From Pseudomonadota bacterium (lineage in GTDB: Bacteria; Pseudomonadota; Gammaproteobacteria; Steroidobacterales; Woeseiaceae): 64,000 nt of DNA. The notes under the pieces were generated by a model, which searched no databases, was not told where the DNA came from, and saw only the letters and a list, made by a program, of their open reading frames with translations. The translations under genes and the position numbers were made by a program. Location: positions 1,307 to 65,306 of the forward strand of contig JACZSM010000007.1 of assembly GCA_022574185.1 (NCBI GenBank), read 5' to 3'. Positions within the stretch are counted from its first letter, which is position 1. Every line of letters begins with the position of its first letter. This document shows positions 10,153 to 51,201 of the stretch, piece by piece.

Positions 10153-10240
10153 GATGGGGTTCTCCCTCCTGTTGTTTTCGTTATTACCGCTATTCTAGAC
10201 CAATTCTAGGTACAATCGCGACAATGAATGGAGGCTCCTG

Positions 10241-10585: not shown

Positions 10586-10597
10586 AGGATAGCTTGA

Positions 10598-10909: not shown

Positions 10910-10937
10910 AGAGTCACGCTGACCGAGAAAAACGTCT

Positions 10938-11558
10938 CTAAAGCGCAGTCCGATACACTGGTTGAAACCGATTGACGACCTCGCAGAACAGATCGGCGGT
11001 GATCTCGGCGTCGTAAGCGGCCGAATGCGCCGAATCCTCATCCCACTTGAAACCAGCGGCGACTGCGGCGCGGGCAAGCACCGTCTGGCCGAAAGCGACG
11101 CCGCATAATGTTGCAGTGTCAAAACAACTGAAAGTATGAAACGGATTGCGTTTGATCTCAGTCCGTGCGATAGCCGCATTGACAAACGCAAGGTCAAATG
11201 CGGCGTTGTGTCCGACGAGAATTGCCCGGCTGCAGTCATTGTCGCGCACAGCCTTGCGCACAGCGCGAAACAAGCGTTGCAGGGCGTCGCGCTCGTCTAT
11301 TGCCGGCCGCAGGGGGTGATCCGGGTCGATGCGGTTAATCGCCATCGAAGCCGGGTTCATATTCGAGCCTGCAAATGGTTTGACGTGATAGCGAATCGTC
11401 TCGCCACGCGTCAGAATACCGCCGTCGCCGAAGTCGACGAGGACAGCGGCAATTTCGAGTAGTGCGTCGGTACTGGCATTAAAACCACCTGTCTCGACGT
11501 CGACAACCACGGGCAGGAATCCGCGAAAACGATTCGCCATGCAAGGATCGTCACTCAC
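10938..11558 (-). CDS. rnt: Ribonuclease T
   Basis: DEDDh exonuclease motifs: PVVVDVETGGFN, GHNAAFDLAF and HSAAYDAE. The 206-aa length is typical. Its position next to grxD matches E. coli. Confidence 0.9.
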   Translation of the reverse strand: MSDDPCMANRFRGFLPVVVDVETGGFNASTDALLEIAAVLVDFGDGGILTRGETIRYHVKPFAGSNMNPASMAINRIDPDHPLRPAIDERDALQRLFRAVRKAVRDNDCSRAILVGHNAAFDLAFVNAAIARTEIKRNPFHTFSCFDTATLCGVAFGQTVLARAAVAAGFKWDEDSAHSAAYDAEITADLFCEVVNRFQPVYRTAL

Positions 11559-13186: not shown

Positions 13187-15850
13187 ATGAGCAGTTTCAA
13201 TCCTTTCGATGATATTGATCCGATCGAGACCGGCGAGTGGCTCGAATCGATCGATTCTGTCCTCGTTCAGCACGGTCCCGAACGGGCACATTTCCTCCTC
13301 AATCACATGATTGAATTCGCACGTCGATCCGGTGCGTATCTTCCCTACAGTCCGAACACGGCCTACCTCAATACGATCGCGACGGGGCGACAACCCGACT
13401 ATCCGGGCGATCGCTCTCTCGAGAGTAAAATCGAGGCCTATATCCGCTGGAATGCAATGGCGATGGTGGTGCGGGCCAATCGGGTCAGTTCCGAGTATGG
13501 CGGGCATATTTCGAGTTACGCGTCATCGGCGACGCTTTACGAAGTCGGTTTCAATCATTTCTGGCGCGCACCGACCGCAGAGCACCAGGGCGACATGATT
13601 TTCTATCAAGGTCATTCATCGCCTGGCATTTATGCCCGCGCCTATCTTGAAGGACGCATGGATGAAAACCAATTGAATCGTTTTCGCCGCGAAGTCGGCG
13701 GAGGTGGTTTGTCATCGTATCCGCATCCATGGCTAATGCCCGACTTCTGGCAGTTCCCGACCGTGTCGATGGGGCTTGGGCCCATGATGGCGAGCTACCA
13801 GGCGCGCTTCATGCGTTACCTGGAGAACCGTGAGCTCATGCCACCGTCAGACCGCAAGGTCTGGTGCTTTCTTGGCGATGGCGAAATGGATGAGCCTGAA
13901 TCAATGGGTGCGATCACGATGCCGGTGCGCGAAGGACTCGATAATCTCATCTTCGTCGTCAATTGCAATCTGCAACGGCTCGACGGCCCGGTCCGTGGCA
14001 ACGGCAAAATCATCCAGGAACTCGAAGCAGCATTCGGCGGTGCCGGGTGGAATGTCATTAAGGTTGTCTGGGGGTCGCGCTGGGATCCATTGCTTGCCAA
14101 AGACCACAACGGCGCGCTGCGCAAGGTGATGGAAGAGACCGTTGATGGCGAGTATCAGGTCTACAAGGCGCGCGACGGCGCCTATGTGCGTAAAGAATTT
14201 TTCGGCAAGAATCCGGAGGCCGAGGAATTGGTGGCCGATATGTCCGACGAGGAGATCTGGAACCTGAATCGCGGCGGCCATGATCCATTGAAAGTCTATG
14301 CGGCCTACGATGCAGCGATTCGTCATACCGGCCAGCCGACGATCATTCTTGCCAAAACGGTGAAAGGATACGGCATGGGTGCCGCCGGGGAAGGGCAGAA
14401 TACGGCACATCAGCAAAAGAAACTGGATATCGACGCCATCAAGGAAATGCGCGACCGGTTCAATATTCCGATCTCCGACGAGAATATTGAAGACGTTCCC
14501 TATTACAAGCCTGCTGCTGACAGTTTGGAGCTCGAGTATATGCATGAGCGGCGGCGCGCATTGGGTGGTTTTCTGCCGCAGCGCCGCAGGAAAGCTACCG
14601 CGCTGCCAGTGCCACCGTTAGAGACCTTCCGCACCCAGCTCGAGGGAACCGGCGAGCGCGAAGCGTCAACCACGATGGCTTTCGTGCGTATCCTGACCAC
14701 GCTGGTAAAAGACAAGCAGATCGGCAGGCATATCGTGCCAATCGTGCCCGATGAAGCACGCACTTTCGGCATGGAAGGCATGTTTCGCCAGATCGGCATC
14801 TATTCGTCGAAAGGCCAGCTGTATACGCCCGAGGATGCCGGCGAGCTCATGTATTACCGTGAGGACACGAAGGGCCAGATCCTCGAGGAGGGCATCAACG
14901 AAGCCGGTGCATTTTGCTCCTGGCTCGCGGCGGGCACTGCGTACTCGAATCACAACATGCAAATGGTGCCGTTCTTCATTTATTACTCGATGTTTGGCTT
15001 CCAGCGTATTGGTGACTTCATCTGGGCGGGCGGTGATCAGCAGTCACGCGGATTTCTGATCGGTGGCACGGCGGGTCGTACGACACTGGCAGGTGAGGGC
15101 CTGCAGCACCAGGACGGTCACAGTCTTGTCAATGCCGGAAGCATACCGAATTGCATCGCCTACGATCCGACCTATGCCTACGAACTTGCTGTCATCATCC
15201 AGGAGGGTCTGCGGCGCATGATCGGCGAGCAGGAGGACATTTTCTACTACATCACCTGCATGAACGAGAATTATGTGCAGCCGCCGATGCCTGCCGGAGT
15301 GGAGGACGGCATTCTCAGGGGCATGTACCTGTTGCAGGTGGGTGGGCAGGGCAAAATTCGCGTGCAACTCATGGGTTCGGGCACGATTCTTCGTGAGGTG
15401 CTGGGCGCGGCAGAAATTCTTGAGACAGACTTCGGCATACCGTCCGATGTCTGGTCGGTCACGAGTTTTAACGAGTTGCGGCGCGACGCGCTCACAGTCG
15501 AACGTTGGAACCAGTTGCATCCGGAAGACGAGCCGCGCAAATGCTACATTGAAGAGTGCCTGGCCAATCGACCCGGTCCCTATATTGCGGCGACGGATTA
15601 TATGAAGATCGTGCCCGATCAAATTCAACGCTGGGTGCCTGGAAGTTTCATTTCCTTGGGCACGGATGGTTACGGTCGCAGCGACGCCCGCAAAGCGCTG
15701 CGGCAGCACTTCGAAATCGATCAGCGTTACATTGCTTTGACCGCGTTGAATGCGCTGGCCGATGATGGTGTGCTCGATCAGAAAACCGTTGCACAGGCAA
15801 TCCACAAATTCGGTATCGATCCGGATCGGCCGGATCCGGTGACGCTGTAG
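13187..15850 (+). CDS. aceE: Pyruvate dehydrogenase E1 component (homodimeric type)
   Basis: 887 aa, with the typical AceE N-terminus DIDPIETGEWLESIDSV. It is followed by E2 and E3 genes. Confidence 0.95.
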   Translation: MSSFNPFDDIDPIETGEWLESIDSVLVQHGPERAHFLLNHMIEFARRSGAYLPYSPNTAYLNTIATGRQPDYPGDRSLESKIEAYIRWNAMAMVVRANRVSSEYGGHISSYASSATLYEVGFNHFWRAPTAEHQGDMIFYQGHSSPGIYARAYLEGRMDENQLNRFRREVGGGGLSSYPHPWLMPDFWQFPTVSMGLGPMMASYQARFMRYLENRELMPPSDRKVWCFLGDGEMDEPESMGAITMPVREGLDNLIFVVNCNLQRLDGPVRGNGKIIQELEAAFGGAGWNVIKVVWGSRWDPLLAKDHNGALRKVMEETVDGEYQVYKARDGAYVRKEFFGKNPEAEELVADMSDEEIWNLNRGGHDPLKVYAAYDAAIRHTGQPTIILAKTVKGYGMGAAGEGQNTAHQQKKLDIDAIKEMRDRFNIPISDENIEDVPYYKPAADSLELEYMHERRRALGGFLPQRRRKATALPVPPLETFRTQLEGTGEREASTTMAFVRILTTLVKDKQIGRHIVPIVPDEARTFGMEGMFRQIGIYSSKGQLYTPEDAGELMYYREDTKGQILEEGINEAGAFCSWLAAGTAYSNHNMQMVPFFIYYSMFGFQRIGDFIWAGGDQQSRGFLIGGTAGRTTLAGEGLQHQDGHSLVNAGSIPNCIAYDPTYAYELAVIIQEGLRRMIGEQEDIFYYITCMNENYVQPPMPAGVEDGILRGMYLLQVGGQGKIRVQLMGSGTILREVLGAAEILETDFGIPSDVWSVTSFNELRRDALTVERWNQLHPEDEPRKCYIEECLANRPGPYIAATDYMKIVPDQIQRWVPGSFISLGTDGYGRSDARKALRQHFEIDQRYIALTALNALADDGVLDQKTVAQAIHKFGIDPDRPDPVTL

Positions 15851-15872
15851 GCGGGCCGGCGGGAATTCGATA

Positions 15873-17501
15873 TTGGCGCACACGATTGAATTAATCATTC
15901 CCGACCTTGGCGACTTTGAGAATGTCGAGGTGATCGAGCTGCTCGTTGCGGTGGGCGACGAAGTTGCCAGGGAAGACGGGCTCATCACGGTCGAGACAGA
16001 CAAGGCCGCGATGGATATACCGTCGCCCGAAAACGGTTCCATCGAGGCATTGAGCGTTGCCGTTGGCGATACGGTATCGACGGGTGACGTTATCGGCAAG
16101 TTGTCGATCGAGGTGGGCGACACTGTCCTTATTACGCCCGCACTCATGCATCCCCCGTCGGGTGAAACGACAGTACTCGCGATGCCCGCCGGCGGGCCGC
16201 TCAAGACCGGCGTCGTACAGACACTGGTTGTGCCTGCGTTAGGCGAATTCGAGGACGTCGAGGTTATCGAGGTCTTCATTTCCAAGGGCGATCAGATCGA
16301 AGTCGAAGACGCGCTGGTCACTCTGGAAACCGACAAGGCCGCGATGGATGTGCCGGCCGTCGTCGGCGGGCGCATCGAGTCGGTGCTCGTGAAGGTTGGC
16401 GATAAAGTGTCCGAGGGGTCATCGCTGGCGATCATCGAGGCGGTTGCGCATGCAGTCGAGCCGTCTGCAACGGAAGCTGCTCCTGCGGATGCAACGTCGA
16501 CAAAATCCGCGCCAGTACCACCAGCGCCAGCCAAACCACCTGCAACACCGGTAGCACCTCTTGCCCCAGCCGCCTTCGACAACGCCGGTTTTTCGCGGGC
16601 CCATGCGAGTCCATCGGTCCGCAAGCTTGCTCGCGAGCTCGGCGTGGATCTCGTGCAAGTCAAAGGCAGTGGGCAAAAGGCGCGCATCGTTCACGATGAC
16701 GTCAAGGCATTCGTCAAGGGAATATTGACAGGCCAGACAGCTGCGAGTGCTGGTGGAGGCTTGCCGAAGACACCCAGCATTGATTTTTCCAAGTTTGGTG
16801 AAATCGAAACACAGCCATTGACGAGAATTCAGAAAATCGCAGGCCCGCGTTTGCAGGCGAGCTGGGTGAACCTGCCGCACGTCACGCAACACGATCTTGC
16901 CGATATCACAGATCTGGAGGAACGACGCCAGCAACTCAAAGGACCGGCCAGGGAACGCGGTATCTCGTTGACGCCGCTTGCGTTCATCATGAAAGCTTGT
17001 GCGGCAGCCCTCAAAGAATTTCCAAAAGTCAATGCATCGCTTGCCGACGACGGCGACAACATTATTTACAAGCATTATTGCCATCTCGGTTTCGCGGCCG
17101 ATACCGACCAGGGCCTGCTGGTGCCGGTCATCCGTGATGCGGATAAAAAGGATGTCTACGAACTTGCGACTGAACTTGCAAAACTCTCGGCTCTTGCTCG
17201 TGACGGCAAACTCAAGGGAGCACAGCTGCAAGGCGCGTCGTTTACGATCTCGAGTCTCGGTGGCATCGGCGGCACGGCTTTCACGCCGATCATAAACGCA
17301 CCGGAAGTCGCGATTCTGGGTGTATCGCGTTCGTCAATGCAAGCTGTCTGGAACGGCTCGGAGTTCGAACCACGCCTGATGCTGCCATTGTCGTTGTCCT
17401 ACGACCATCGCGTGATCGACGGCGCCGCGGCTGTTCGCTTCACGACCTATCTTGGCGAGCTGCTTGCTGATGTTGACCGCCTGCTTGAGGCGATTCCGTA
17501 G
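15873..17501 (+). CDS. aceF: Dihydrolipoyllysine-residue acetyltransferase (PDH E2), two lipoyl domains
   Basis: Two lipoyl-lysine motifs (ETDKAAMD twice), Ala/Pro-rich linkers, a subunit-binding domain (ASPSVRKLARELGVDL) and the catalytic motif SYDHRVIDGA. TTG start. Confidence 0.95.
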   Translation: MAHTIELIIPDLGDFENVEVIELLVAVGDEVAREDGLITVETDKAAMDIPSPENGSIEALSVAVGDTVSTGDVIGKLSIEVGDTVLITPALMHPPSGETTVLAMPAGGPLKTGVVQTLVVPALGEFEDVEVIEVFISKGDQIEVEDALVTLETDKAAMDVPAVVGGRIESVLVKVGDKVSEGSSLAIIEAVAHAVEPSATEAAPADATSTKSAPVPPAPAKPPATPVAPLAPAAFDNAGFSRAHASPSVRKLARELGVDLVQVKGSGQKARIVHDDVKAFVKGILTGQTAASAGGGLPKTPSIDFSKFGEIETQPLTRIQKIAGPRLQASWVNLPHVTQHDLADITDLEERRQQLKGPARERGISLTPLAFIMKACAAALKEFPKVNASLADDGDNIIYKHYCHLGFAADTDQGLLVPVIRDADKKDVYELATELAKLSALARDGKLKGAQLQGASFTISSLGGIGGTAFTPIINAPEVAILGVSRSSMQAVWNGSEFEPRLMLPLSLSYDHRVIDGAAAVRFTTYLGELLADVDRLLEAIP

Positions 17502-20421: not shown

Positions 20422-20928
20422 TTACTTCAGGAAACGTCTGGCGACAATGCTGTCCGCGCTTAGTTTACCAGCACCGGCAACGACCAACGGTATCAGCATT
20501 GCGATGAATAGCAGCGGCACGCGGTAGTTGCCGGAGCCGTCTTTCGGCGTTATACGATAGCCTTCCCACAACTCACCCAGGCTGCTCCATTCTGCGGGCC
20601 AGTGCACGCCCGAGATGGCGACGATGCTGATGATGATCAGCGTGAATGCCCAGAACCGTGTGAACAGGCCCAGCAGCAGTCCTGCAGAGCCGAGTATTTC
20701 GAACCAGGTCGCCATAAACCAGCTGACGTCGACCGGAATCACGTTGAACGGAAATATAAAGTTGTCCTGAACATTGCCGAACCAGTTCTGTCCGTTGAAT
20801 TTACCTATTCCGGCTTTGCCGAATTCCCAAGCCATCAGCAAGCGAATCAGTAGCAGGCCGGCGCCGTAGTTTGCGGCGCAGTCCAGCCAGTCGGTAATGC
20901 GCTTGTAGTATGCAAGCAGCTTATTCAT
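20422..20928 (-). CDS. DoxX family membrane protein (HvfX-like position)
   Basis: 168 aa with 4 TM helices. It lies 12 nt after the DUF2063 gene. This arrangement is typical of MNIO/DUF2063/DoxX RiPP-type clusters. Confidence 0.65.
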   Translation of the reverse strand: MNKLLAYYKRITDWLDCAANYGAGLLLIRLLMAWEFGKAGIGKFNGQNWFGNVQDNFIFPFNVIPVDVSWFMATWFEILGSAGLLLGLFTRFWAFTLIIISIVAISGVHWPAEWSSLGELWEGYRITPKDGSGNYRVPLLFIAMLIPLVVAGAGKLSADSIVARRFLK

Positions 20929-20940
20929 CGTCGTGCTCCA

Positions 20941-21714
20941 TTAGTTTGGCGCTCTTGTGCCAGTCAGAATTTCCAGTTGTCGCATTTCTTTGAGTAGTGT
21001 TGCGCCATGCCTGAGTAATGAATCGACAGCGGCGTATTCGATCTTCGCGGCCAGTTCAAACAGCAGGGCCTCGCCAGACAGATTCTTATCGTTGCTCGCG
21101 ATAGAGTCGAGCAGCTGCGCCGTCATGGTATTCAGCTCGAGAAAGCCGACTTTGTCATCGTCGCCACGATACACCGCGAGAAAGATGGGCTGCGCTTCGG
21201 GCGCCTGAGGCAAAAATCCCGGCGAAATTCGGTGCACAGGATATTGATACGAATACACCCAGGTCAGAACAGACTTTACCGGCACGTTAGCCAGCAGGTC
21301 GCCGTCCGGATCGACTCCTTGTAAATCGTTCGAGTCCTCCGAAATCGACAACGCTATCTCAATGTATTCGTAGTGCGCGAGTTCGATCAGAAACGGAAAG
21401 TCGTCATCGCGCAATTCGTACTCGTTTTGCAGAAAGTCGAGAAATTCTCGCGGTAATTGCAGGAAATACGGCGTTTTGGCTCTGTGTTTTTGCATGAACA
21501 AGCGAATCATGCGGTTCCACTTCGCGGTTGAATGTAGCTTCTTCAGCACCGGAAACATGGTCGCGAGCAGGCTGCGCAGGTTGTTGAAGAACAGTTCGCG
21601 ATAAATGGCCATGCGTCGATCTTCGATGCCGGCGGGCGCCGGTGCGTTTTTCGGATCGCGAATGTGTGCGGCAAAAGCGAACTGTTTTTTCTGAAAATCA
21701 AGTTGCTCAGCCAT
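20941..21714 (-). CDS. DUF2063 family protein (HvfC/BufC-like RiPP partner protein)
   Basis: N-terminal pattern [14 protein letters not shown]...[31 protein letters not shown]...W. The start is trimmed to ATG 21714, overlapping the upstream stop by 8 nt. Confidence 0.7.
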
Positions 21715-22561
21715 TGACGGCCTCCGGTTGCCTGGCGTCACGTTGCAATTCGCGAATGTGGCTGAGCTCGTCGAGTAATTCCGCGACTGGTGGAAAATTG
21801 AAATCGCGCTCGAGCAATGTGGGAACCGGCCCGAAATGCGCGTAAGCGTCAGCGAGCAAGTTCCAGCTCTGCTCGTCGACAGCGGCGCCGTGTGTATCTA
21901 CCCGCAAGTCCGGAGCCTCGACGTAATGGCCAGCCTGGTGAAAGTAGCGAATTCGGTCGGCGGGCATTCTGACCATGAATTCATGCGCGTCATAGCCGTG
22001 GTTGATGCTGTTGACGATGATGTTGTTGATGTCGAGCATCAGGTCGCAGTCGGCTTCCTGCAGAACCGCAAGGAGAAAATCAATCTCGCTCATTGATGCG
22101 TCAGTTGGCGCGTAGTACGAGACGTTTTCCAATGCGATGCGCTGCTCGAGGATGTCCTGCACCCGCCTGACACGAGCGGCGACATACTTGACGGCTTCTT
22201 CGGTAAAAGGAATCGGCATTAAGTCATACAGGTGTCCATCATCCCCGCAATAACTCAAATGTTCCGAGTACATAAGGATATTGTGCGCGGCCATGAATGC
22301 CTTGATGTCACGCACGAGTTGCTCGTCGAGAGGTACAGGGGCGCCGATCGAGAGCGACAGGCCGTGAATCAGGAATGGATATCGTTCGGTGAAGTAGCGA
22401 AGTTTCTTGCCAAGAGCGCCGCCGACATGAATCCAGTTCTCAGGGGCAATCTCCATGAAATCGATTTTGCCCTGGGGAATGTCTTGCAGCTTGTCGGCCA
22501 GCGGCCGGCGCAGGCCAAGGCCGGCGCCGCTTACCGGGTATTGCGGGTCTGAGTCACTCAT
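21707..22561 (-). CDS. DUF692 / MNIO family (multinuclear non-heme iron oxidase) protein
   Basis: Pattern GAGLGLRRP...FMEIAPENW...IHGLSLSIG...SEHLSYC...ALENVSYY...DINNI...YFHQAGH...VDTHG...LLERD. The start is trimmed to ATG 22561; the track extension overlaps nth. Confidence 0.8.
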
Positions 22562-22604
22562 ACAGCACAAGACCTTATCGGGGCCGCGATTATTACATTG
22601 CAGA

Positions 22605-23240
22605 TCATGACAGTTCTTTACGCCGGTATTCGCACCATTCGATGATTTTGCATTCGCCGCACAGCGGTTTTCGCGCCTTGCAGACATAGCGCCCGTGCAG
22701 GAGCAACCAGTGATGTGCGTTTTTCTTGAATTCGTCAGGCGTGAAGCGAGTCAGGCGCTCTTCGACGGCCAGCGGTGTCTTGCCAGTCGCCATGCCGGTG
22801 CGATTGGAGACGCGGAAAATGTGGGTGTCCACAGCGATCGTCGGTTGGCCGAAGGCCGTGTTGAGTATGACGTTGGCGGTCTTGCGGCCAACGCCTGGCA
22901 GTCCCTCGAGTTCCTCACGAGTTTGTGGCACCTCACTGTCGTATGCATTGATCAGAATTCTGCAGGTCTTGATGATGTTTTCAGCTTTGCTGTTATACAG
23001 GCCGATCGTGCGGATGTAGGGCAATAGTCCCTCGACACCGAGTTCAAGAATGGCCACCGGTGTATTCGCAACAGGATACAGTTTGTCGGTTGCCTTGTTG
23101 ACGCTGATATCGGTGGCTTGTGCGGAGAGGACCACGGCCACGAGCAACTCGAACGGGCTGTCATAGCGGAGTTCGGTGTCCGGATTCGGGTCGAGCGCAC
23201 GCAGCATGGCGTATATTTTCGTGCGTTTGTCCCTGTTCAC
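22605..23240 (-). CDS. nth: Endonuclease III
   Basis: 211 aa, HhH-GPD motif [11 protein letters not shown], and a C-terminal 4Fe-4S loop [17 protein letters not shown]. It directly follows rnfE as in E. coli. Confidence 0.95.
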
Positions 23241-28241: not shown

Positions 28242-29954
28242 TTACTTGATACGCATTCCTGGTTCGGCGCCATCTTCCGCCGATGGCAAGAAGATGTCCT
28301 TCGCGCTGCGTTTCGATTGTTCAACCATATTGTCGACTTGTGCAGGCTCGATACGCGTCAATAATGGCTTGAATTTTAAAATTCTGGTGCCGAGCAATGG
28401 CTTGGATGCGCAATACCAGTGCCATTCGTCCTCACCGAAAAACGACCGTGCGTCGTCGGCGACAGAGGGAATGACCGGTGTCAGGTAGATCATCAGGCTG
28501 CGGAACAGATTGAGTCCCTGGGTGCAGACGGCTTGCACTTCGGCCAGTTGGTTCTCGTCCTTGATCATGACCCAGGGCTTTTCCCGGTCGATGTAACGAT
28601 TGGCATCGTCGGCGAGACCCATGATCCGCCGCATCGCTTTAGAGTATTCACGACGCTCATAATGTGCAGCGATTTCCTCAGATGCGTCGGCAAGGGCATT
28701 AAACAGATCAGGCTCAGGCAGCGCATCGGCGAGTTTGTCGTCGAAGCGCTTGTTGATGAATCCCGCGCATCGGCTGGCGATGTTGATCAACTTGCCGATC
28801 AGGTCCGCATTGACCTTCGCAATGAAATCATCGAGATTGAGATTGATGTCTTCTATGGTCGGACCGAGTTTAGCTGCGTAGTAGTAGCGCAGGTACGCCG
28901 GATGCAAATTATTCAGGTAGGTTCGCGCGTTGATAAATGTGCCGCGCGACTTGGACATCTTTTGTCCATTGACGGTTAGAAAGCCGTGTGAAAATACACT
29001 CGTTGGCGTCCGAAATCCTGAACCCTGCAAAACAGCTGGCCAGAACAGCATGTGAAAATACATGATGTCCTTGCCAATGAAATGATATAGCTCGGTGTCA
29101 TGCCCGGGACGCCAGTACTCGTCGAAGTCGAGGTCGTCCCGACGGTCACAAAGGTTTTTGAAGCTTGCGGCGTAGCCGATCGGGGCGTCCAGCCATACGT
29201 AAAAATATTTGTCGTCGGTGCCGGGAATCCTGAAACCGAAGTAAGGCGCATCTCGGGATATATCCCAGTCTCGCAGTCCGGCATCGAACCACTCCTCAAG
29301 CTTGGCGACAACGCTCTTTTCAAGATCCGCTTCATCAATCCAGTCACGCAAGCGCTTTTCGTATTTGCTCAATTTGAAAAAGTAATGCTCCGATTTACGC
29401 GTGACCGGCTTCGTACCCGATAGCACCGAGATTGGGTCAATAAGGTCGGCAGGTGTGTAGGTCGCGCCGCAGACTTCACAGGCGTCACCATACTGGTCCT
29501 CACTTTTACAGCGTGGACAAGTACCCCGCAGGAACCGATCTGGCAGGAACAAACCTTCTTTTTCGTCGAAGGCCTGCTCGATCGTTTTGGTGTAGATGTC
29601 ACCGGTCTTGCTCAACGCTTGAAACATCTCGATGACGAGGGCTTCGTTTTCGGGCGAATGCGTTGTGTAATAGTTATCGAATTCGATGCCGAATGCGGAA
29701 AAGTCTTTGAGGAACTCCTTCGTGATCTCCGCGGTGAGTACTTCAGGAGTGATGCCCAACTCCCGGGCCTTGAGCATGACCGGAGTACCGTGAACATCGC
29801 TGGCACAGACGTAGGTGCAAGTGTGGCCACGAAATTTCTGAAATCGGGCCCAGATGTTGCCTTGCAGGTATTCGACGAGGTGACCCATATGGATCGAGCC
29901 ATTTGCATACGGCAAGGCGTTTGTAACGAGTATTTTTCGTGGCCGATCGAGCAT
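28242..29954 (-). CDS. metG: Methionine--tRNA ligase (short form)
   Basis: HMGH motif ([13 protein letters not shown]), KMSKS motif and zinc knuckle [18 protein letters not shown]. At 570 aa it lacks most of the C-terminal tRNA-binding domain (see findings). Confidence 0.95.
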
Positions 29955-30074
29955 GCGTGTTGAATTCGGTCTGGCTAAAGGCCGCGATTATGCCACGTGT
30001 CGATGTACTTTATCTGCGCCGGCTCTGAACCCGTCAGTATCACTTTGACGGAGTACTCCCCTGGTGCAAGTGCA

Positions 30075-31136
30075 TCAGTTGTCGTTTTTCATGCGTTCAA
30101 AAGTGCTCTTATTATAAGCTTGCAGATAGGCCTCTCGCCCCGAGATAAAGGCCTTTTCGACGAGTTGCATGAGAGCCGCATCCATGGTTTGCATACCAGT
30201 ACCACCGCCGGCCTGCATTGCAGTCTCCAGCTGATCGAGCTTGCCCTGACGAATCAGGTTCGCTACGGCCGACGTATTGATCAAGACCTCGAGTGCGGCA
30301 ACCCTGCCAGGCTTGTGTTTGGTTGGCAGCAACTGTTGCGATATTACACCGCGCAACGAGGTCGAAATCATTGTGCGGATATGGCTTTGCTTGCCGGCCG
30401 GAAAAGAGTTGATGATGCGATCGACCGTTGCGGCGGCGCCATTGGTGTGCAACGTACCCATGACCAGAATACCCATCTCGGCGGCGGTCACGGCGATACT
30501 GATCGTTTCAAGGTCACGCATTTCGCCGACCAGGATGACGTCGGGATCTTCACGCAATGCCGAGCGCAATGCATCGGCAAAACTCTTGCTGTGCAAACCG
30601 ATTTCACGCTGGCTGATAAGACAGTTCTGTCTCTTGTGCACAAACTCGATGGGGTCCTCAATCGTAAGAATATGGCCGTGCTTGCGCTTGTTGATGGCGT
30701 CAACCATCGCCGCCAGCGTCGTGGACTTGCCCGATCCGGTCTTGCCCGTGACCAGGATCATGCCCTGCGTCTGTCGGCACAAATCATGCACGACCTTGGG
30801 CATGTCCAGATCCTCGAGAGTTAGTGGTTGTGAGGGAATTGCGCGAAAGATGGCGCCAATGCCGTTCAAATGTCGAAAGACATTGGCTCGAAATCGTGAC
30901 ACATCTGGAATGTCGTATGCAAAGTCGGCCGCATCGTTTTTTTCGAACGTCTGTTGCGTCTTGGCATCCATGATCGCATACACTGCGTCCTTGACAAATT
31001 CAAGTGTGAGATCGTCGCCTTTCAGCGCGTGCAATTCGCCATGAACGCGAATGCGCGCAGGACCACCCGAAACAAAATGCAAATCGGACGCTTTCTCCTT
31101 GAGAGCGCGTTTTAAAAATTCATCGATCTTGTTCAT
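30075..31136 (-). CDS. PilT-family type IV pilus retraction-type ATPase (divergent paralog)
   Basis: Walker A GKTGSGKST, Walker B DPDVILVGEMRD, His box MGTLHT and the C-terminal PilT-like motif AVANLIRQGK. 353 aa. Confidence 0.85.
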   Translation of the reverse strand: MNKIDEFLKRALKEKASDLHFVSGGPARIRVHGELHALKGDDLTLEFVKDAVYAIMDAKTQQTFEKNDAADFAYDIPDVSRFRANVFRHLNGIGAIFRAIPSQPLTLEDLDMPKVVHDLCRQTQGMILVTGKTGSGKSTTLAAMVDAINKRKHGHILTIEDPIEFVHKRQNCLISQREIGLHSKSFADALRSALREDPDVILVGEMRDLETISIAVTAAEMGILVMGTLHTNGAAATVDRIINSFPAGKQSHIRTMISTSLRGVISQQLLPTKHKPGRVAALEVLINTSAVANLIRQGKLDQLETAMQAGGGTGMQTMDAALMQLVEKAFISGREAYLQAYNKSTFERMKNDN

Positions 31137-32241
31137 CGGCTACCTGTGAACTGTCGCTGCCATCGATTGTACTCACGAGTGAAGTGTCCGTAACGAAACG
31201 TTGAAACTTCTTCTTGTCGCCGGCATGAAGATAGGCATCGTCGGGATCGATCTCATTTGCAGCAATTGCATCGAGCAGTGCCTGGTCCATCAGTTGCATG
31301 CCGTGGGCCTTGCCCGTTTGCAGTTGTGACGGAATCTGATGCGTCTGGTCGCTCGTGATCAGTTTTGCAATTGCGCGTGTATTGACGAGAATTTCAAAAA
31401 TGGCCCGCCGTCCCCGGCCATCGGGGGTCTTGATCAGTACTTGAGTAATAACGGCTTTGAGGCTGCTTGCAAGAAACGCCTTGGTTTGCTCCCGAAGTTC
31501 GCCCGGCAATGCGTCGATGACCCGGTCGAGCGTCTTGACCGCACCGGTAGTGTGCAATGTACCGAGGACAAGATGCCCGGTTTCGGCCGCGGTCATCGCC
31601 ATCGAAATCGTTTCCGCGTCCCGCAGCTCGCCGACCAGGATGACGTCAGGGTCCTCTCGCATGGCCGAGCGTACGCCGTCAGCGAAACTCTTAACGTGCG
31701 AACCAAGTTCGCGTTGGATGATCTGGCTCTTCTTGCTCGGGTGCACAAATTCGATCGGGTCTTCGAGACTGATGATATTCAGGCTTTTGGTCTGATTGAT
31801 GTGGTTGATCATCGCCGCAAGCGTCGTCGACTTGCCGGTTCCCGTCGATCCGGTGACGAGGACCATGCCCTGATGCAAATCGCAGAAATCGGTCAGTATT
31901 GACGGCACGTGTAATTGTTCGAGTGTCGGCACGTCTCCAGGAATATACCGAAATACGGCTCCGTAACCGGAGTCTTTTGTGAAGACATTGACGCGAAAAC
32001 GTGCACCATCCTCGCTAACGTAGGAGAAATCCAGGTCGTTACCGTCCCGTAATAATTCCTTCTGCGAAGTCGAGAGAACTTCGAGAATATAAGTTTCGAG
32101 TTCGGTGTCCGTCAGTTCGCGAAATTTGATCGGCATCAAATCGCCGTTCATACGCAGCATCGGTGGCACGCCGACGGCAAGATGCACGTCGGAACAGCCC
32201 TGTGCGAGACCGAGTTTTAGAAAGGCGTCGATACGAGCCAT
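31120..32241 (-). CDS. PilT/PilU-family hexameric ATPase (divergent paralog)
   Basis: Walker A GSTGTGKST, Walker B DPDVILVGELRD, His box LGTLHT and an acidic C-terminal tail. The start is trimmed to ATG 32241 (MARIDAFL). The stop overlaps the next gene by 17 nt. Confidence 0.85.
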   Translation of the reverse strand: MARIDAFLKLGLAQGCSDVHLAVGVPPMLRMNGDLMPIKFRELTDTELETYILEVLSTSQKELLRDGNDLDFSYVSEDGARFRVNVFTKDSGYGAVFRYIPGDVPTLEQLHVPSILTDFCDLHQGMVLVTGSTGTGKSTTLAAMINHINQTKSLNIISLEDPIEFVHPSKKSQIIQRELGSHVKSFADGVRSAMREDPDVILVGELRDAETISMAMTAAETGHLVLGTLHTTGAVKTLDRVIDALPGELREQTKAFLASSLKAVITQVLIKTPDGRGRRAIFEILVNTRAIAKLITSDQTHQIPSQLQTGKAHGMQLMDQALLDAIAANEIDPDDAYLHAGDKKKFQRFVTDTSLVSTIDGSDSSQVADEQDR

Positions 32242-32368
32242 GTCGGGGCCCAAGAATCAATTAGTTACGCTTATCCTAGGCGGAAATTATGTCGCATGCC
32301 AGAGCGACATCACATTTTTGATAATTGCGTGCGTGCAAGTACGCCGTCAATATTGCTTTGGCGGAGTA

Positions 32369-34795
32369 CTAAACGGGAACAGCGTCGAACGCTTCTGTCA
32401 GCTCATCCATCGATTGGTGGCGCTTGGTCTTGTCGACCGACATGGCCTTGACGATGATGGCGGCGTATTCGTCAGGAATGTCGGGATTGATCTCCTGGCA
32501 ATGCTTGGCCTTGCCCTGCACATGCTGGTACATGACCGACATATGATCACCACGACTGTAGGGAGGGATACCGGTTGTCATCTCGTACATTATGATACCG
32601 ATACTGTAGACGTCGGCCGTCACGTCCACTTTCTTGCCAAGTATCTGTTCCGGTGCCATGTATTTCGGCGAACCGATGACGTAGCCGGTCTTGGTCAGCT
32701 GCGTATCGCCGCTCGAAGCTGCTGCGGCAACGCCGAAGTCTACAATCTTCAGTAGTCCTTCCTCATTGACAAGGATGTTGGCCGGCTTGAGGTCGCGGTG
32801 AATAACGCCCGCCTGGTGCGCGATCGTCATACCCGTCACCATATCGCGCGAGAACTTCAGTGCTCTTGCGATGTTCATCGGTTTGCTGTTAGGGATTTCC
32901 CCACTTAGCGTGTGCGACGGGAAGTACTCCATCGATATTGCGTAGCTGCCTTGCAGGTACAGAAAATCGTAGATACGGATGACGTTGCGATGCGTGATCA
33001 TGCGCGAGTAACGAAGCTCGTGGACGAAGCGTTTCATCATTTCTTCATCAGTGGAAATATTCGGGTTCAGGAACTTTAGAATCAAGCGCTCGTCAACGAT
33101 CTGATCCTCCATCAGCAATACGGTGCCGAATGCGCCTTTGCCTATTTTTTCGATGTACTTGTATCGCCCGTCGATTACATCGCCCGGTTTGAGCTTCGTT
33201 ATGTCGAGGACCTGTGGTTGCGGCGTCGGGGCAACGTCGGATGTCGCTGGCGCAGATACTGCGGTCTGGCCCTTGAGCAGCTTGTCGAGATCTTCGCTGT
33301 TGAGCAACATGGTTTTCGTGTGTTCGGCGATTTTCTTGGCGCGCTCGTTTTCGGCGAGAACTGTTGCTGAAAACCTCGCATCGAGATACTTGAGGGCCTT
33401 GTCGGCGCTATTGATAATTGTCGGCTCGTTGCTTTGTTTGATTTTCTGCAGTGCTTCGCGAACCGTCGCGGCATGCGATTCATCGGCGAGCTGTGAAATT
33501 GCCTTGATTGCCTCGACCTGCACGGCCCTGTCCTCGGAATTGAGCATTGGCACAATTTTCGCAATATGCTTATGGTTGCCGATCTTGCCAAGTGCGCGGA
33601 TGACGACGGTGTCTGTCTTCGAATCTTTGCCGAGCAATGCGAGCAGCGTCGGCACAGCTTTCGAACCGCCGATTTTCGACAAAGCGTCGATGGATCGTTC
33701 GCGGACCCACCAATCGGAGTCTTCGGTTGCCTGGATCAAATGATCGACAGCTCGCTCATCTTTGGTGGCATTCAGTATTTCAATGGCCGTGCGCCGAATC
33801 TCCTCATCCTCGTCCTTGATCAGCGCTACGACCGCATCCACGACCTTCGGCCCCCCGATTTCGGCCAGTGCATCTCCAGCCCTTGAGCGTACCCACCAAT
33901 CGTCATCCCTGATGACATTGAGCAGGTCTTTGACCGATTCCTTGGTGCCGATTTTATTGAGGACCTCGACGGCGGCACGGCGCGCGTATTCCGAATCATC
34001 CTTGAGCGCTTCAGCAAGATATTTGACGGTTTCAGGGTGGTTCATCTGTATCATCATGTCGACGGCTTTGTTTTGCACCTCGATATCCGAGTCCTGCAGC
34101 AATTTGCTGACCGCCGCGATATTGACGGCACCGCCTTTCGCTGCAAGGGCAGAAAGGGCCGCACCGCGGACCATCTTATTCGTGTCCTTGAGCTGCATCT
34201 CGAGTGCGTGATTGATTTCGGGCTTATCAAACTTCGAGAGCAGGGCAATCAGGTGCGTCTTGATGTACGGATCCTTACCGCCCATGCGCGCGATGATGTC
34301 GGGAATCATTTCTGGCCGGATCATATCCCCGATAATCTTGAAGATCGCGGCCGATTCTTTAGGCTCCAGTTCGTATGCGCATTGCAACAGATCATGGATG
34401 CTCAGATCCTCCTTGTGCACGCGCAACACTTCGATAAGCGCCGGCTTGGAGACCTCGGGATCCGCAAAAAAGGCCAGCAAGTTGTTGGCGTTGTAACCGG
34501 TGTTGCTTGAGAGTGCCCAGGAGGTGCCTGAGACTACCCGATCATTGCCGTCAGAAAGGCCGTCCCGATAGGCATCAAGCGTCTTGTCGTTGAGCAGACT
34601 CGACAGGATGTCGACGAACACCATGGTGTGTGACTTGTCCGATAGGGCGAGCGCGTCAATGGCCCTTGGAATGACCTTGGGGCCCAGTTTTTTCAACTTG
34701 CTGACTAGATTCTGGGCGGCAGGCGAGTCCGGTTTTGGTTCTGCAACCAGCTTCGAGACTAGTTGGTCGGCGCGAAAAGATCCGAGGAAACTCAT
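32369..34795 (-). CDS. HEAT-repeat (PBS-lyase-like) protein fused to a Hanks-type Ser/Thr protein kinase
   Basis: 808 aa. The N-terminal ~500 aa carries repeated D-x-D/E-WWVR...A..AL..IG motifs. The C-terminal kinase has GKGAFGTV, a Lys in LILKF, HRDLKPANIL, DFG and SPKYMAPE. No TM segment or signal peptide is seen. Confidence 0.85.
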   Translation of the reverse strand: MSFLGSFRADQLVSKLVAEPKPDSPAAQNLVSKLKKLGPKVIPRAIDALALSDKSHTMVFVDILSSLLNDKTLDAYRDGLSDGNDRVVSGTSWALSSNTGYNANNLLAFFADPEVSKPALIEVLRVHKEDLSIHDLLQCAYELEPKESAAIFKIIGDMIRPEMIPDIIARMGGKDPYIKTHLIALLSKFDKPEINHALEMQLKDTNKMVRGAALSALAAKGGAVNIAAVSKLLQDSDIEVQNKAVDMMIQMNHPETVKYLAEALKDDSEYARRAAVEVLNKIGTKESVKDLLNVIRDDDWWVRSRAGDALAEIGGPKVVDAVVALIKDEDEEIRRTAIEILNATKDERAVDHLIQATEDSDWWVRERSIDALSKIGGSKAVPTLLALLGKDSKTDTVVIRALGKIGNHKHIAKIVPMLNSEDRAVQVEAIKAISQLADESHAATVREALQKIKQSNEPTIINSADKALKYLDARFSATVLAENERAKKIAEHTKTMLLNSEDLDKLLKGQTAVSAPATSDVAPTPQPQVLDITKLKPGDVIDGRYKYIEKIGKGAFGTVLLMEDQIVDERLILKFLNPNISTDEEMMKRFVHELRYSRMITHRNVIRIYDFLYLQGSYAISMEYFPSHTLSGEIPNSKPMNIARALKFSRDMVTGMTIAHQAGVIHRDLKPANILVNEEGLLKIVDFGVAAAASSGDTQLTKTGYVIGSPKYMAPEQILGKKVDVTADVYSIGIIMYEMTTGIPPYSRGDHMSVMYQHVQGKAKHCQEINPDIPDEYAAIIVKAMSVDKTKRHQSMDELTEAFDAVPV

Positions 34796-35150
34796 CGCCT
34801 GAGGTCGATATCAATATTGTGGACTGCCACAGAGCCAGCAGATTCAATGGCAGTGCAGCGAGTACCGGCAAGCGGCATTCCTGCACTTAATTTCCAGTTT
34901 TTCAACTTTTGTTCAGCCAATCGATTCGCTCTTGCCCAGGCGAAGCACGGCATCCGCTACACAATTGCGAATCCAGTACGGCCGCATAGTCTCCGATGCG
35001 GCATTATGCCACATCGTCCCAGCCCACATTGTCGCGCAAGCCCTTGAAAATCAATGCTTGGTTCCAGCTCAGGCTCCGTTACAATGTGCGCCCACAAGCC
35101 TCCATTTGGAGGCGAATGTGCTGATTTTACCTAATACCGTAGGTGGAAAT

Positions 35151-36245
35151 GTGACGCCGTCAACAGAAACAGATGTGAAAAAAATCCTGAATTCCGTGGA
35201 GTTACCGGGCATCGGCCTGTCAATTGGGGACGTGGGCAGGGTACTCGATGTTAGCGTATCGACTGAACATGTCGCAGCGAAAATTGAACTCGGATTTCCG
35301 GCGTCGACTATTCACGACGTATTTCGGTCGCACATAGCCGCGGCGATTACCGCGGAATTGGGCTGTGATGATGTCGACATCGAATTATCGACACGCGTGG
35401 TCGCTCACGGTGTACAACGAAATCTCAAACCGCTGGCACAGATCCGCAACGTTATCGCAATAGCATCGGGGAAAGGCGGCGTCGGCAAATCGACCGTCGC
35501 CGTGAATATTGCATTGGCGCTGGCCACTGACGGTGCGTCCGTTGGCATGCTGGATGCGGACATATATGGCCCGAGTCAGCCGCAAATGCTTGGACTGGCC
35601 GGCGAGCGGCCCTCGAGCCCGGACGGTAAAATGCTGCAGCCTCTGCAGGCACACGGACTGCAAGTCATGTCGATCGGCTTTCTTGTCGATCCCGATCAGC
35701 CGATGATCTGGCGTGGCCCGATGGTTACGTCCGCGCTCAATCAACTGCTGCAGCAAACTTCCTGGCACGATCTCGACTACCTGATCGTGGATATGCCGCC
35801 CGGGACCGGCGACATCCAGCTAACGTTGTCGCAGCAAGTTCCGGTCAGCGGTGCGGTTATTATTACGACACCACAAGATATCGCGTTGCTCGATGCGCGC
35901 AAGGGACTTGCGATGTTTCGCAAGGTATCGATCCCGGTGCTTGGCGTCATCGAAAATATGAGCACCCATGTCTGCTCCGAGTGTGGTCATGAGGACAACA
36001 TTTTCGGATCGGGCGGCGGCAAGCGCATGGCCGAGGATTTCGACATCGAGCTCCTGGGGCAGCTGCCGCTTGAGACAAGTATTCGGGAGCAGACCGATAG
36101 CGGCAATCCGACCGTTATTGCCGATCCGGAGTCGGCGGCGGCGGCGGCCTACCGGAGCGCAGCCCATCGCATGGCTGCATTACTGGCAAAACAGGGCAAG
36201 GATTACAGCAGCAAGTTTCCGAAAATCGTCGTCGAGGAAAGTTGA
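35151..36245 (+). CDS. apbC: Iron-sulfur cluster carrier protein ApbC/Mrp
   Basis: Deviant Walker [11 protein letters not shown], the CSECGH (CxxC) motif and ADIYGPS. The start is set to GTG 35151, preceded by AGGTGG. The track extension to 34932 is noncoding-like. Confidence 0.9.
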
Positions 36246-36811
36246 TGAGTATCAAGCCGGATCGTTGGATCCGTCGCATGGCAACTGAACACCGAATGAT
36301 CGAGCCATTTGCGCCACACCAGGTGCGAAAAGTCGGGGACCGACGCATCATTTCCTACGGGACATCGAGTTATGGCTACGATGTCCGTTGCGCCAATGAA
36401 TTCAAGATATTCACGAATGTTCATTCCGCCGTTGTTGATCCCAAGAACTTTGACGAAACAAGTTTCGTCGATGTTGAGGGCGACGTCTGTGTCATTCCAC
36501 CCAACTCGTTCGCACTGGCACGTACGGTCGAGTATTTTCGAATTCCGCGCAATGTTTTGACAATCTGCCTGGGCAAATCGACCTATGCGCGCTGCGGCAT
36601 CATCGTGAATGTCACGCCGTTGGAGCCCGAGTGGGAAGGGCACGTAACTCTCGAATTCTCGAATACGACGCCGTTACCGGCCAGGATTTACGCCAATGAA
36701 GGCATCGCACAGCTGCTGTTTCTCGAATCCGATGAGGTGTGCGAAACGTCCTACAAGGACCGCGACGGCAAGTACCAGGGCCAGCAGGGCGTGACGCTGC
36801 CCAAAGCCTGA
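36245..36811 (+). CDS. dcd: dCTP deaminase
   Basis: 188 aa: [13 protein letters not shown]...SSYGYDVRC...[12 protein letters not shown]. The ATG overlaps the apbC stop (TGATG). Confidence 0.95.
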
Positions 36812-49975: not shown

Positions 49976-51201
49976 TAGTTAACAAGAAAGTATTCGCCTG
50001 GGCCCTTTATGACTGGGCGAACTCGGCATTCGCGTTGAGCGTGCTCGCCGTGCTATTCCCGTTGTTTCTGGGCAGTTACTGGAGCGTCGGCGACTCGGGC
50101 GCCTCGGTGACGGCACGCCTGGCCTGGGTCACAGCGGCGGCCAGCGCTATTGTCAGCATTCTGGCACCGATATTTGGCACGATTGCCGACACGGGCGGCT
50201 ACCGCAAACGCTTCCTGCTGGTGCTGGCACTGGTAGGCGCGACAATGACCGCGTCACTGGGATTGGTTGGTGAAGGCGGCTGGCCGTGGGCACTGGGGAT
50301 ATACCTGCTTGCATCCATTGGATTTTATAGTTCGACAGTTTTTTATGATTCACTGATCATCGATGTTACGAAGCCGCGCTACTACAGCTTTGTCTCGTCG
50401 CTAGGTTTCTCGCTCGGTTACCTCGGCGGCGCGTCGTTACTGGCTTTGCATGTGTGGATGATCTCGTCGCCTGAGACGTTCGGGCTTGCGACGGCCGCCG
50501 ACGCCATGAAAATTGCGTTCGTATCGGTTGGTGTCTGGTGGGCCGTATTCCTCATTCCTCTCATCGTCCTGGTGCCCGAGCAGCGAACCGGCAAGGTCGT
50601 CGCTGGCGGAGTGCTCCGAGCGGCTTATACCAAACTTCGGGAAACGATTCGTAATGTGCGCCGCTACCGAGACGTCGTCAATTTCCTGACCGCGTATTTT
50701 TTGTACATTGCTGGCGTCTTCACTGTGATTTTTATGGCGGCCAATTATGGACAGAGACTGGGATTCAACACCGGGGATCTGGTCAAGGCATTGATGATCA
50801 CGAATTTCGTCGGTTTCTTTGCCACCTTGTTGTACGGCTATTTTGGGCACCGGTTTGGGCCGAGACCCGGTATCTATTTCGCCCTCGTCGTCTACGTTGT
50901 CGTGTCGAGCTGGGCGGTATTCATGCACGACGTCAGGCAGTTCTATGTAATGGCAATCGTTATTGGCTGCGTTCAGGGCGGCGTCCAGGGCTTGAGCCGG
51001 TCAATGTATGCGGCGTTAATCCCGCCCGATCAACCCGGTGAATTTTTTGGCTTTTACAACATGATTACCAAACTGTCGCATGTGCTCGGGCCGGTAATGG
51101 TCGGACTCGCTGCGACGTTTTCAGACGCGCCGGAGTACGTGCTGCTGGTTTTGATACCACTTTTTGCTGGCGGTGGATTATTGCTGATGCGGGTGAGATA
51201 A
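49972..51201 (+). CDS. MFS transporter, UMF1 (Atg22-like) family
   Basis: [14 protein letters not shown]-terminal signature and about 12 TM helices. The start codon is uncertain (TTG at 49972). Confidence 0.7.

Follow-up and report, generated by a model that had tools for sequence, protein, structure and literature searches.

PilT-family motors rank with the strongest known molecular motors, and how cells time the retraction of their pili is largely open; to our knowledge, no retraction ATPase has been described as being controlled directly by eukaryotic-like Ser/Thr phosphorylation. A Hanks-type kinase, an FHA protein and a PP2C phosphatase are the standard parts of a reversible phospho-threonine switch. 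In the type VI secretion system (T6SS), threonine phosphorylation involving the kinase PpkA, a membrane protein with a periplasmic sensor, the PP2C phosphatase PppA and Fha1 switches an envelope machine post-translationally, and in the crenarchaeal archaellum the FHA protein ArnA and the Hanks-type kinases ArnC and ArnD control a type IV filament machine, acting mainly on the expression of the archaellum operon. Here we analyze a stretch of 64,000 nucleotides (the window) from a Woeseiaceae-type gammaproteobacterium (GenBank assembly GCA_022574185.1, contig JACZSM010000007.1, positions 1,307 to 65,306), in which a gene for a HEAT-repeat Hanks-type Ser/Thr kinase is followed by two genes for PilT-family ATPases. 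All components of this three-gene module come from known families; their combination is undescribed. An earlier note on this DNA, made from the sequence alone, had proposed an undescribed system, and our search of the literature indeed yielded no description of a Hanks kinase or a HEAT protein operonic with PilT-family ATPases. The module thus offers a defined three-gene system for testing Ser/Thr phospho-control of retraction ATPases.

Two described pairs of ATPases can be compared with the pair in the window. PilT and PilU, the retraction ATPases of type IVa pili in P. aeruginosa, V. cholerae and Acinetobacter, are encoded next to each other, and PilU is PilT-dependent (PMC6762196). The likeness lies in an adjacent, co-directional pair of PilT-family proteins, hexameric in PilT-PilU and presumably so in the window, which are approximately 40-45% identical and both pass the TIGR01420 model, one member keeping the AIRNLIRE-type motif (in the window only in part) and the other lacking it. 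However, the window ATPases fall outside both canonical clades, their order is reversed, with the motif-less ATPase first, they are not beside yggS/proC and are always preceded by the HEAT-kinase gene, and the downstream member lacks the first histidine of the His box. In M. xanthus, the adjacent non-canonical PilT paralogs MXAN_6705 and MXAN_6706 are conserved across an order, and their deletions cause varying defects of S-motility, strongest for ΔMXAN_6706 (PMC13584747). The window shares with them the adjacency of two non-canonical PilT paralogs, but the product of the gene beside them, MXAN_6704, has been described as a GNAT acetyltransferase rather than a kinase, and there are no Myxococcus proteins among the best 120 matches to the profile of the upstream ATPase family.

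Structure and conservation of the module

The three genes are co-directional on the minus strand. The first one (32369..34795) is an 808-codon open reading frame (ORF) encoding the kinase; it is followed by a 127-nt spacer (32242..32368), the gene of the "upstream" PilT-paralog ATPase (31120..32241, 373 amino acids, aa) and the gene of the "downstream" PilT-paralog ATPase (30075..31136, 353 aa), the last two reading frames sharing 17 nt (31120-31136). This layout, including the position of the trio between metG and apbC, agrees with that given in the earlier note. A TTG at 32253, if used as an alternative start, would lengthen the upstream ATPase by 4 aa; the ATG at 32241 is favored because all orthologs of this protein begin with MARIDAFLKL. 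On the minus strand of the 127-nt spacer we found a single promoter-like match (32350-32321), at chance level, and no terminator-like site; the minus strand of the 120-nt spacer between the second ATPase gene and metG (29955..30074) also contained no terminator-like site, and neither the 127-nt spacer nor the 322-nt region between the kinase gene and apbC had a match in Rfam. Over the module region as a whole, nothing in the promoter, terminator and Rfam scans exceeded chance.

To collect related loci, we scanned metagenomes with the HEAT-specific DWWVR motifs as seeds, which returned 80 loci, and analyzed them by local TBLASTN. A single gene order emerged, with dcd<-apbC<- on one side and ->kinase->ATPase->ATPase->metG->rnfA on the other: among the loci with enough sequence, apbC is located 5' of the kinase gene in 64/64, the first ATPase is present in 56/56, the second one in 41/41, and metG follows the trio in 32/32. 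These counts include a deeper soil-type group, whose kinases are 50-57% identical.

Outside this set, we re-checked by TBLASTN the contigs of eleven distant HEAT-kinase relatives (taxon labels here and below are the depositors' own). The order kinase, "upstream" ATPase, "downstream" ATPase was found in nine distinct distant lineages (L002, L162, L167, L168, L170, L171, L172, L178 and L179), with the kinase being 34-52% identical. Only L002 (kinase identity 52%, contig stopping within the second ATPase gene) has apbC/dcd 5' of the kinase, and metG adjoins the module in 0/9 lineages, the L002 contig stopping before any metG. The arrangement small ORF->K->A->A (K, kinase; A, ATPase) was observed in L167 (45%, a metagenome-assembled genome, MAG, of Gammaproteobacteria), in L162/L163 (43-44%; a PP2C gene follows the second ATPase and an FHA-GAF-HD gene is divergent), in L172 (42-43%; Acidihalobacter yilgarnensis, CP017415.1, where the module comes after groES-groEL), in L168/L169 (40-41%) and in L170 (38-39%; contig stopping within the second ATPase gene). 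An FHA gene precedes the trio in L179 (38%, with a convergent FHA-GAF-HD_5 gene) and in L171 (35%, FHA->K->A->A->HD-PP2C), and in L178 (34%, a cluster labelled Acidobacteriota) a small ORF follows it. Neighbors of the distant modules include groEL, ABC transporters and ribonucleotide reductase.

As a control we used 78 loci around unrelated Hanks kinases. They came from a contig search with the full-length kinase alignment, which keyed on kinase-domain peptides and, apart from these generic kinases, returned only two true relatives, L002 and L003. A PilT-like gene of any kind was present within 10 kb in 2 of the 78 control loci. Since this background is low, and since more than 50 relatives and nine distant lineages share one order and orientation without exception, the adjacency of the kinase and the ATPases cannot be explained by chance. 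The two ATPases represent two old, distinct subfamilies that always occur together and always in the order kinase, "upstream", "downstream", and we are highly confident that the three genes constitute one functional module. The presence of the trio in every related locus with enough sequence and its recurrence in distant lineages bear out the module suggested in the earlier note and show it to be conserved; the outcome that it had named as damaging, a kinase adjacency not conserved in relatives, was not what the comparison of neighborhoods showed.

The module is also found in groups labelled Tectimicrobiota, NC10/Methylomirabilis, Acidobacteriota and various Gammaproteobacteria. The labels of the upstream-ATPase family comprise Tectimicrobiota, Inmirania and NC10/Methylomirabilis, and those of the small-protein family encoded beside some modules (see below) comprise Tectimicrobiota, Inmirania and Halofilum. 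Of cultured organisms, Acidihalobacter yilgarnensis encodes the complete trio together with the small protein; Inmirania thermothiophila, in which we saw no more than the upstream ATPase and the small protein, probably carries the module. The genome of A. prosperus carries it as well.

The two PilT-family ATPases

Pfam identified the T2SSE domain in both ATPases, and both exceed the cutoff of the PilT/PilU family model TIGR01420 (446.9 bits for the downstream and 419.3 bits for the upstream protein, the cutoff being 319.1), with alignments covering positions 2-341/342 of 343; the assignment to the PilT family made in the earlier note is thereby supported by profile searches. The two proteins align with each other without gaps at 45% identity. 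For comparison, canonical pilT and pilU genes were fetched along with their yggS/proC context, and P. aeruginosa PilT was taken from PDB entry 3JVU. The identity of the downstream ATPase is 50-52% with canonical PilT and 34-38% with PilU, that of the upstream ATPase 46-47% and 35-36%, respectively, whereas canonical PilTs from four gammaproteobacterial orders are 73-80% identical among themselves.

In a distance-based neighbor-joining tree (351 columns, 200 bootstraps), all kinase-linked upstream ATPases formed a clade with 98.5% support, and the downstream ATPases formed a clade with 92% support when the most divergent member, L171, was left out. The canonical PilT clade (P. aeruginosa 3JVU, A. 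baumannii, X. sacchari and Legionella) had a support of 95.5%, or 100% together with a plasmid copy, and the PilU clade (X. sacchari and A. baumannii) had a support of 100%. Both window ATPases are outside the two canonical clades, on the PilT side of the tree. Judged by these sequence comparisons, neither of them is an ortholog of the canonical yggS-linked PilT or of PilU, and orthology to the housekeeping pair, considered in the earlier note as a counter-explanation, was not confirmed. The separation of the two ATPases into two clades indicates that the duplication behind the pair is older than the spread of the module.

The ATPases could still be the working, although divergent, PilT and PilU of this lineage, with the kinase being an ordinary neighbor that regulates other targets. 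In favor of this, NCBI names the downstream protein "type IV pilus twitching motility protein PilT" and the upstream one "PilT/PilU family type 4a pilus ATPase" (records MCH8865944.1 and MCH8865945.1 for the two), and a metagenomic survey reports PilT and PilU in all Woeseiaceae MAGs (PMC12175321); a search of the supplements of that survey for pilT, pilU, pilB and pilQ retrieved nothing. However, the low identity to canonical PilT and PilU and the placement in separate clades speak against it, and an adjacency and gene order invariant in nine distant lineages would be unexpected for an unrelated neighbor, so that we consider this explanation improbable. The names themselves have consequences for annotation. 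As automated pipelines label the kinase-linked paralogs "PilT" or "PilT/PilU", claims of twitching motility made from metagenomes of these groups may rest on paralogs without established function. Among the carriers of the module are the Woeseiaceae, which a metagenomic study assigns to the core of the communities in marine sediments (PMC12175321).

The Asp box and the Walker B glutamate are present in both ATPase families. The upstream ATPase has the Walker A motif GSTGTGKSTT (family consensus G[SA]TGTGK[ST]TT) together with an intact Asp box, Walker B and His box; its AIRNLIRE motif is lost (AIAKLITSDQ), and it carries a family-specific C-terminal tail, FQRFVTD... The downstream ATPase has the Walker A motif GKTGSGKSTT (family consensus G[KP]TGSGKSTT), keeps the Asp box, Walker B and the second histidine of the His box, and partly keeps an AIRNLIRE-like motif (AVANLIRQGK, the family having A-x-x-N-L-I-R-[QE]-G-K in this position). 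Its first His-box histidine is replaced (GILVMGTLHT, I223 versus H222 in P. aeruginosa PilT); this residue is isoleucine in all members of the downstream clade except L171, which has valine. The motif losses of the two ATPases are complementary, which as a sequence pattern points to complementary specialization.

The threonine of the FQRFVTD tail was also considered as a conserved phosphosite of the upstream ATPase and was rejected, as alanine, valine, proline or serine occupies this position in several members.

The HEAT-repeat kinase

In the kinase protein, Pfam identified HEAT_2 in five stretches (E 7.6e-53) and Pkinase at aa 545-796 (E 1.5e-49). The protein scores 169.2 bits against PF00069, the gathering score being 31.7, and is thus a Hanks-type Ser/Thr kinase. 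Its catalytic residues K574, E593, H666-R667-D668, N673, D686-F687-G688 and P715-E716 are all present and invariant in an alignment of 38 family members, which is consistent with the complete kinase described in the earlier note. The maximum hydropathy over 19-residue windows is 1.34, and no window is transmembrane-like, in agreement with the solubility claimed there. Thus, to the extent that residues and hydropathy can tell, the protein is a soluble, catalytically complete kinase with a scaffold-type HEAT solenoid of approximately 500 aa.

Three parts can be delimited in the kinase gene by Pfam, the family alignment and a structural model: the HEAT/PBS-lyase-like alpha-solenoid (33266..34795, minus strand, aa 1-510), a low-complexity linker rich in alanine, proline, threonine and serine at the boundary between the solenoid and the kinase domain (33164..33265, minus strand, aa 511-544) and the protein kinase catalytic domain (32408..33163, minus strand). 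The best-conserved block of the solenoid, aa ~260-400, holds two DxDWWVRxRAxDAL repeats, in which D115, W116, W117 and R119 (segment numbering) are invariant in the family alignment. In a single-sequence AlphaFold2 model, aa 1-520 form an all-helical solenoid of approximately 30 helices with a mean predicted local distance difference test score (pLDDT) of 76; pLDDT falls below 50 from aa 510 on, and the linker is weakly conserved in the family alignment. The top Foldseek matches of the modeled solenoid are alphaRep designs, the PP2A scaffold PR65 and karyopherins. As these are protein-binding scaffolds, the solenoid is likely to be of the protein-scaffold type.

The protein does not belong to the PknB/Stk1 PASTA kinases: it reaches 260.5 bits of the 450 required by NF033483, within the kinase domain only, and has no PASTA match in Pfam and no hydrophobic segment. 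Nor is it recognized by the equivalogs of phycobilin lyases and NblB (NF045915 and NF058502; 94.6 versus 300 bits for NblB and 77 versus 330 for CpcE), with which it has only the repeat type in common. More than 100 clusters of full-length relatives are 76-92% identical to it, several of them labelled as Woeseiaceae MAGs, and relatives of approximately 800 aa aligning end to end reach down to 29% identity in an exhaustive HMMER search; Acidihalobacter, Ectothiorhodospira, Granulosicoccaceae and Acidobacteriota are among the labels in the family. Linkage to the ATPases does not strictly follow from the two DWWVR repeats, as the L178 kinase (P0158) has a degenerate second repeat and is accompanied by both ATPases.

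Accessory genes

In the window, a Pfam scan of the 30 other large ORFs revealed no pilin, PilB, PilC, PilM-Q, secretin, FHA or PP2C, and the lack of pilus, FHA and PP2C genes asserted in the earlier note is thus corroborated for these ORFs. Most of them are housekeeping genes (pyruvate dehydrogenase complex, proS, valS, prfC, lptFG, purMN), and the remainder are a few signaling proteins and a few ORFs without assigned function. The related claim that the kinase has no local partner holds for the window but not for other lineages: a PP2C gene is located 3' of the module in L162 and an HD-PP2C gene in L171, an FHA gene is located 5' of it in L171 and L179, and an FHA-GAF-HD_5 protein is encoded beside it in L162/L163 and L179. 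A kinase-PP2C-FHA module is therefore not present in the window and is partly present in relatives (L162, L163, L171 and L179), and the occurrence of FHA and PP2C beside the module in other lineages favors explanations that involve phospho-signaling. In carrying FHA and PP2C beside the kinase and the ATPases, the relatives resemble the PpkA/PppA/Fha1 system of T6SS; the window kinase differs from PpkA in being apparently soluble with a HEAT solenoid, and its partner is a pair of PilT-like ATPases. The control of the archaellum likewise combines Hanks-type kinases with FHA, but it is archaeal and has neither a HEAT kinase nor PilT-like ATPases.

A small accessory protein of 154-192 aa flanks the module in seven lineages, with 36-49% identity across lineages and only a sub-threshold similarity to DUF6812; neither the window nor any Woeseiaceae-like locus contains it. 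The same family was found directly 5' of a single canonical-like PilT in two control loci. In L069 (Gemmatimonadales MAG, 9032-11023, minus strand), the small protein and PilT are encoded beside three prepilin-type (N_methyl) genes and a PilX_N gene, and in L057 (Acidobacteriota MAG, 15122-17128, plus strand) they are amid three Hanks kinases with PD40, TPR or WD40 domains. An AlphaFold2 model of the small protein, built from an alignment of 30 sequences, consists of tandem small beta-barrels (pLDDT 89), and its best local structural matches are Hfq proteins, including that of Synechocystis (probability ~1, root-mean-square deviation ~3 Å over 62 residues, but E ~0.2).

According to PMC7690835, citing Schuergers et al. 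2014, Synechocystis Hfq binds the pilus ATPase PilB1 and is needed for motility. The likeness consists in a (predicted) Sm-fold protein, the accessory of other lineages in our case, going with a type IV pilus secretion-family ATPase; the accessory differs in having two domains, in belonging to another family and in being linked to PilT-like rather than PilB-like ATPases. The Hfq-like fold, along with the Synechocystis Hfq/PilB1 precedent, is circumstantial evidence that the role of the ATPases is related to pili, and the small Sm/Hfq-like protein may be a general, undescribed partner of PilT.

Proposed function

We propose that the three genes encode a Ser/Thr-phosphorylation signaling module built around two dedicated PilT-paralog motors, which would probably modulate type IV pilus dynamics. 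Functional statements in this section are drawn from sequence, genomic context and predicted folds, and on the proposal as a whole we are evenly divided. Of its parts, we lean slightly towards direct control of the ATPases by the kinase, and a type IV pilus as the target seems to us about as probable as not.

In the proposed mechanism, the HEAT solenoid would dock the ATPases or receive an upstream signal, and the kinase would phosphorylate the ATPases or an FHA adaptor, switching the ATPases on or off; in the Woeseiaceae-type lineage, a PP2C encoded elsewhere would reset the switch. By analogy with PilT/PilU, both ATPases would be hexameric motors working as an obligate pair. The downstream ATPase, in which the AIRNLIRE-like surface is kept, would engage the platform of the type IVa pilus, while the upstream one, having lost AIRNLIRE, would serve as an accessory motor. 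Pilus retraction or dynamics would in this way be controlled by a signal.

Several observations weigh against this proposal. Genes of the pilus machine adjoin the HEAT-kinase trio in 0 of ~12 contexts seen, and the lineage of the window lacks local FHA, PP2C and Sm-like genes. Two more distant HEAT-kinases, of 36% and 30% identity, have no ATPases nearby, the former being followed by a PP2C-DUF8082 protein and the latter standing alone. Phosphorylation of the ATPases and contact between them and the HEAT solenoid are purely inferred, and the activity of the downstream ATPase may be altered by the loss of the first His-box histidine. Given their NCBI names, the kinase-linked paralogs may be what the survey counted as PilT and PilU in every Woeseiaceae MAG (PMC12175321), and the Hfq-like fold match of the small protein is weak by its E-value, 0.18.

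The lack of any pilin, platform, alignment-complex or secretin gene beside the trio in all contexts examined could also be explained by a pilus-independent machine, in which kinase-gated, HEAT-scaffolded PilT-like hexamers act on another substrate, such as a protein, a nucleic acid or an envelope system. Consistent with this, both ATPases are deep paralogs that fall into neither the canonical PilT nor the PilU clade, the upstream one is without AIRNLIRE, the His box of the downstream one is altered, and non-pilus roles of PilT-like proteins have been discussed for Geobacter PilT1 (PMC5065972). On the other hand, both ATPases match TIGR01420 over their full length and well over its threshold, the downstream one keeps the AIRNLIRE-like motif, and the Sm-like accessory also accompanies a PilT encoded beside minor-pilin genes. 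Moreover, canonical pilT-pilU are themselves located beside yggS, apart from other pil genes, and hence the missing adjacency of pilus genes is weak evidence. We regard a pilus-independent role as rather unlikely. Similarly unlikely, if not slightly more so, is a phospho-gated dual-motor machine of two co-evolved PilT-paralog hexamers, perhaps mixed or stacked, that would be held and switched by the HEAT-kinase and, independently of canonical PilT/PilU, act on a distinct filament or on a substrate other than the type IVa pilus; its interchangeable accessories would then be the FHA, PP2C, HD-type and Sm-like proteins.

Genomic placement and selection

On its 3' side, the module is followed after 120 nt by the co-directional metG gene for methionyl-tRNA synthetase (28242..29954, minus strand; Pfam tRNA-synt_1g, E 9.6e-151) and then by rnfABCDGE-nth. 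On its 5' side, a divergent intergenic region of 322 nt (34796..35117), as delimited by the inferred apbC start, separates it from apbC/mrp, which encodes an Fe-S carrier ATPase (35118..36245, plus strand; ParA/NUBPL, E 3.6e-104, and FeS_assembly_P), and from dcd beyond it. The apbC ORF spans 34932-36245 on the plus strand; its probable start is the GTG at 35118, with GGAGG 6 nt 5' of it. The E. coli apbC and metG genes adjoin each other directly and are divergent, as stated in the earlier note, to which the module looked like an insertion between them.

The placement between apbC and metG is common to all sampled relatives with 50-84% kinase identity, the GC content of the module resembles that of its flanks, no mobility gene (integrase or transposase) was found at the module, and no full-length homolog of the kinase was found on 72,556 plasmids. 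The invariant synteny, the flank-like GC content and the lack of plasmid homologs demonstrate that the placement is ancient, fixed and vertically inherited and that the module is not a recent island. The proposed insertion can thus be upheld only in a deep evolutionary sense and not as a recent event. Under the signaling function proposed above, the position between apbC and metG would be a lineage-specific, ancient genomic accident without a functional link.

These data also bear on an anti-phage defense system or another mobile island between metG and apbC, a role that the earlier note had listed as possible. The module does split a pair adjacent in E. coli, and several PADLOC kinase models (PD-T4-6, mad6, PglW and Stk2) match the kinase domain. 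However, the matches are confined to the generic kinase domain, the ATPases match P-loop fragments only, and the NCBIfam equivalogs are far under their cutoffs (150 versus 460 bits for MAD6 and 99 versus 990 for PglW). Strict, vertical synteny in all relatives, conservation equal to or above that of housekeeping neighbors, flank-like GC content and the absence of mobility genes and plasmid copies make a defense function very improbable.

To compare conservation, we calculated the mean identity to the window in 24 five-gene loci: 79.5% for the upstream ATPase, 73.9% for the downstream ATPase and 70.8% for the kinase, and 71.5% for metG and 67.4% for apbC in the same loci. The upstream ATPase is thus more conserved than metG or apbC, and the identity of the module genes is approximately that of metG/apbC or above. 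This suggests purifying selection at least as strong as that on the essential neighbors; at the level of sequence identity, the module is under strong purifying selection.

The co-directionality of the module with metG and the lack of a terminator-like site between them would fit a translation-stress kinase tied to metG, analogous to the eukaryotic GCN1 (HEAT) and GCN2 (kinase), with the ATPases as effectors, and one relative has a faint HEAT_GCN1 match in Pfam. Yet metG adjacency was observed only in the Woeseiaceae-like set and the deeper soil-type relatives and in none of the nine distant lineages (with the reservation that the L002 contig stops first), and we consider such a link highly unlikely.

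The flanking genes themselves show two further peculiarities. The window metG has only 570 codons and stops 45 nt short of rnfA, while related loci have approximately 350-400 nt more at the metG/rnfA gap, where L001 contains the tRNA_bind domain PF01588; the C-terminal tRNA-binding domain of methionyl-tRNA synthetase seems to have been lost in the window lineage and in L093. In soil-type relatives, the dcd gene (dCTP deaminase) is split by in-frame inteins of 197-375 aa, all on the minus strand (L152:248-1681, L153:3109-4266, L154:5837-7528, L155:5821-8214 and L160:2504-4195). The insertion site is GKSTYAR|CGIIV, and the stop-free inserts begin with CF[RS]GDTRV… and finish with …VFV[KRQ]N|C; L155 has a second intein too (CVTGDTRV…IVHN|S). 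The window dcd (36242-36811) is intein-free.

Other features of the window

A large GAF-PAS-PAS-GGDEF-EAL protein, involved in the turnover of cyclic di-GMP, is encoded at 6305-9085 on the plus strand, 23 kb from the module. HD_5 covers phosphodiesterases of the HD-GYP type, and FHA-GAF-HD_5 flanks the module in two distant lineages; a connection of the module with cyclic di-GMP is conceivable.

At 20422-22687 on the minus strand, a gene of the MbnB/TglH/ChrH family (DUF692) overlaps with a DUF2063/NGO1945_C gene and is followed by DoxX; the pairing of DUF692 and DUF2063/NGO1945_C is typical of clusters for the modification of ribosomally synthesized and post-translationally modified peptides or for metal stress. 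At 51178-55109, also on the minus strand, a MoxR-type AAA_3 ATPase, a 404-aa ORF without a Pfam match and a TgpA-type transglutaminase (TgpA_N, Transglut_core and DUF4129) are encoded in a row.

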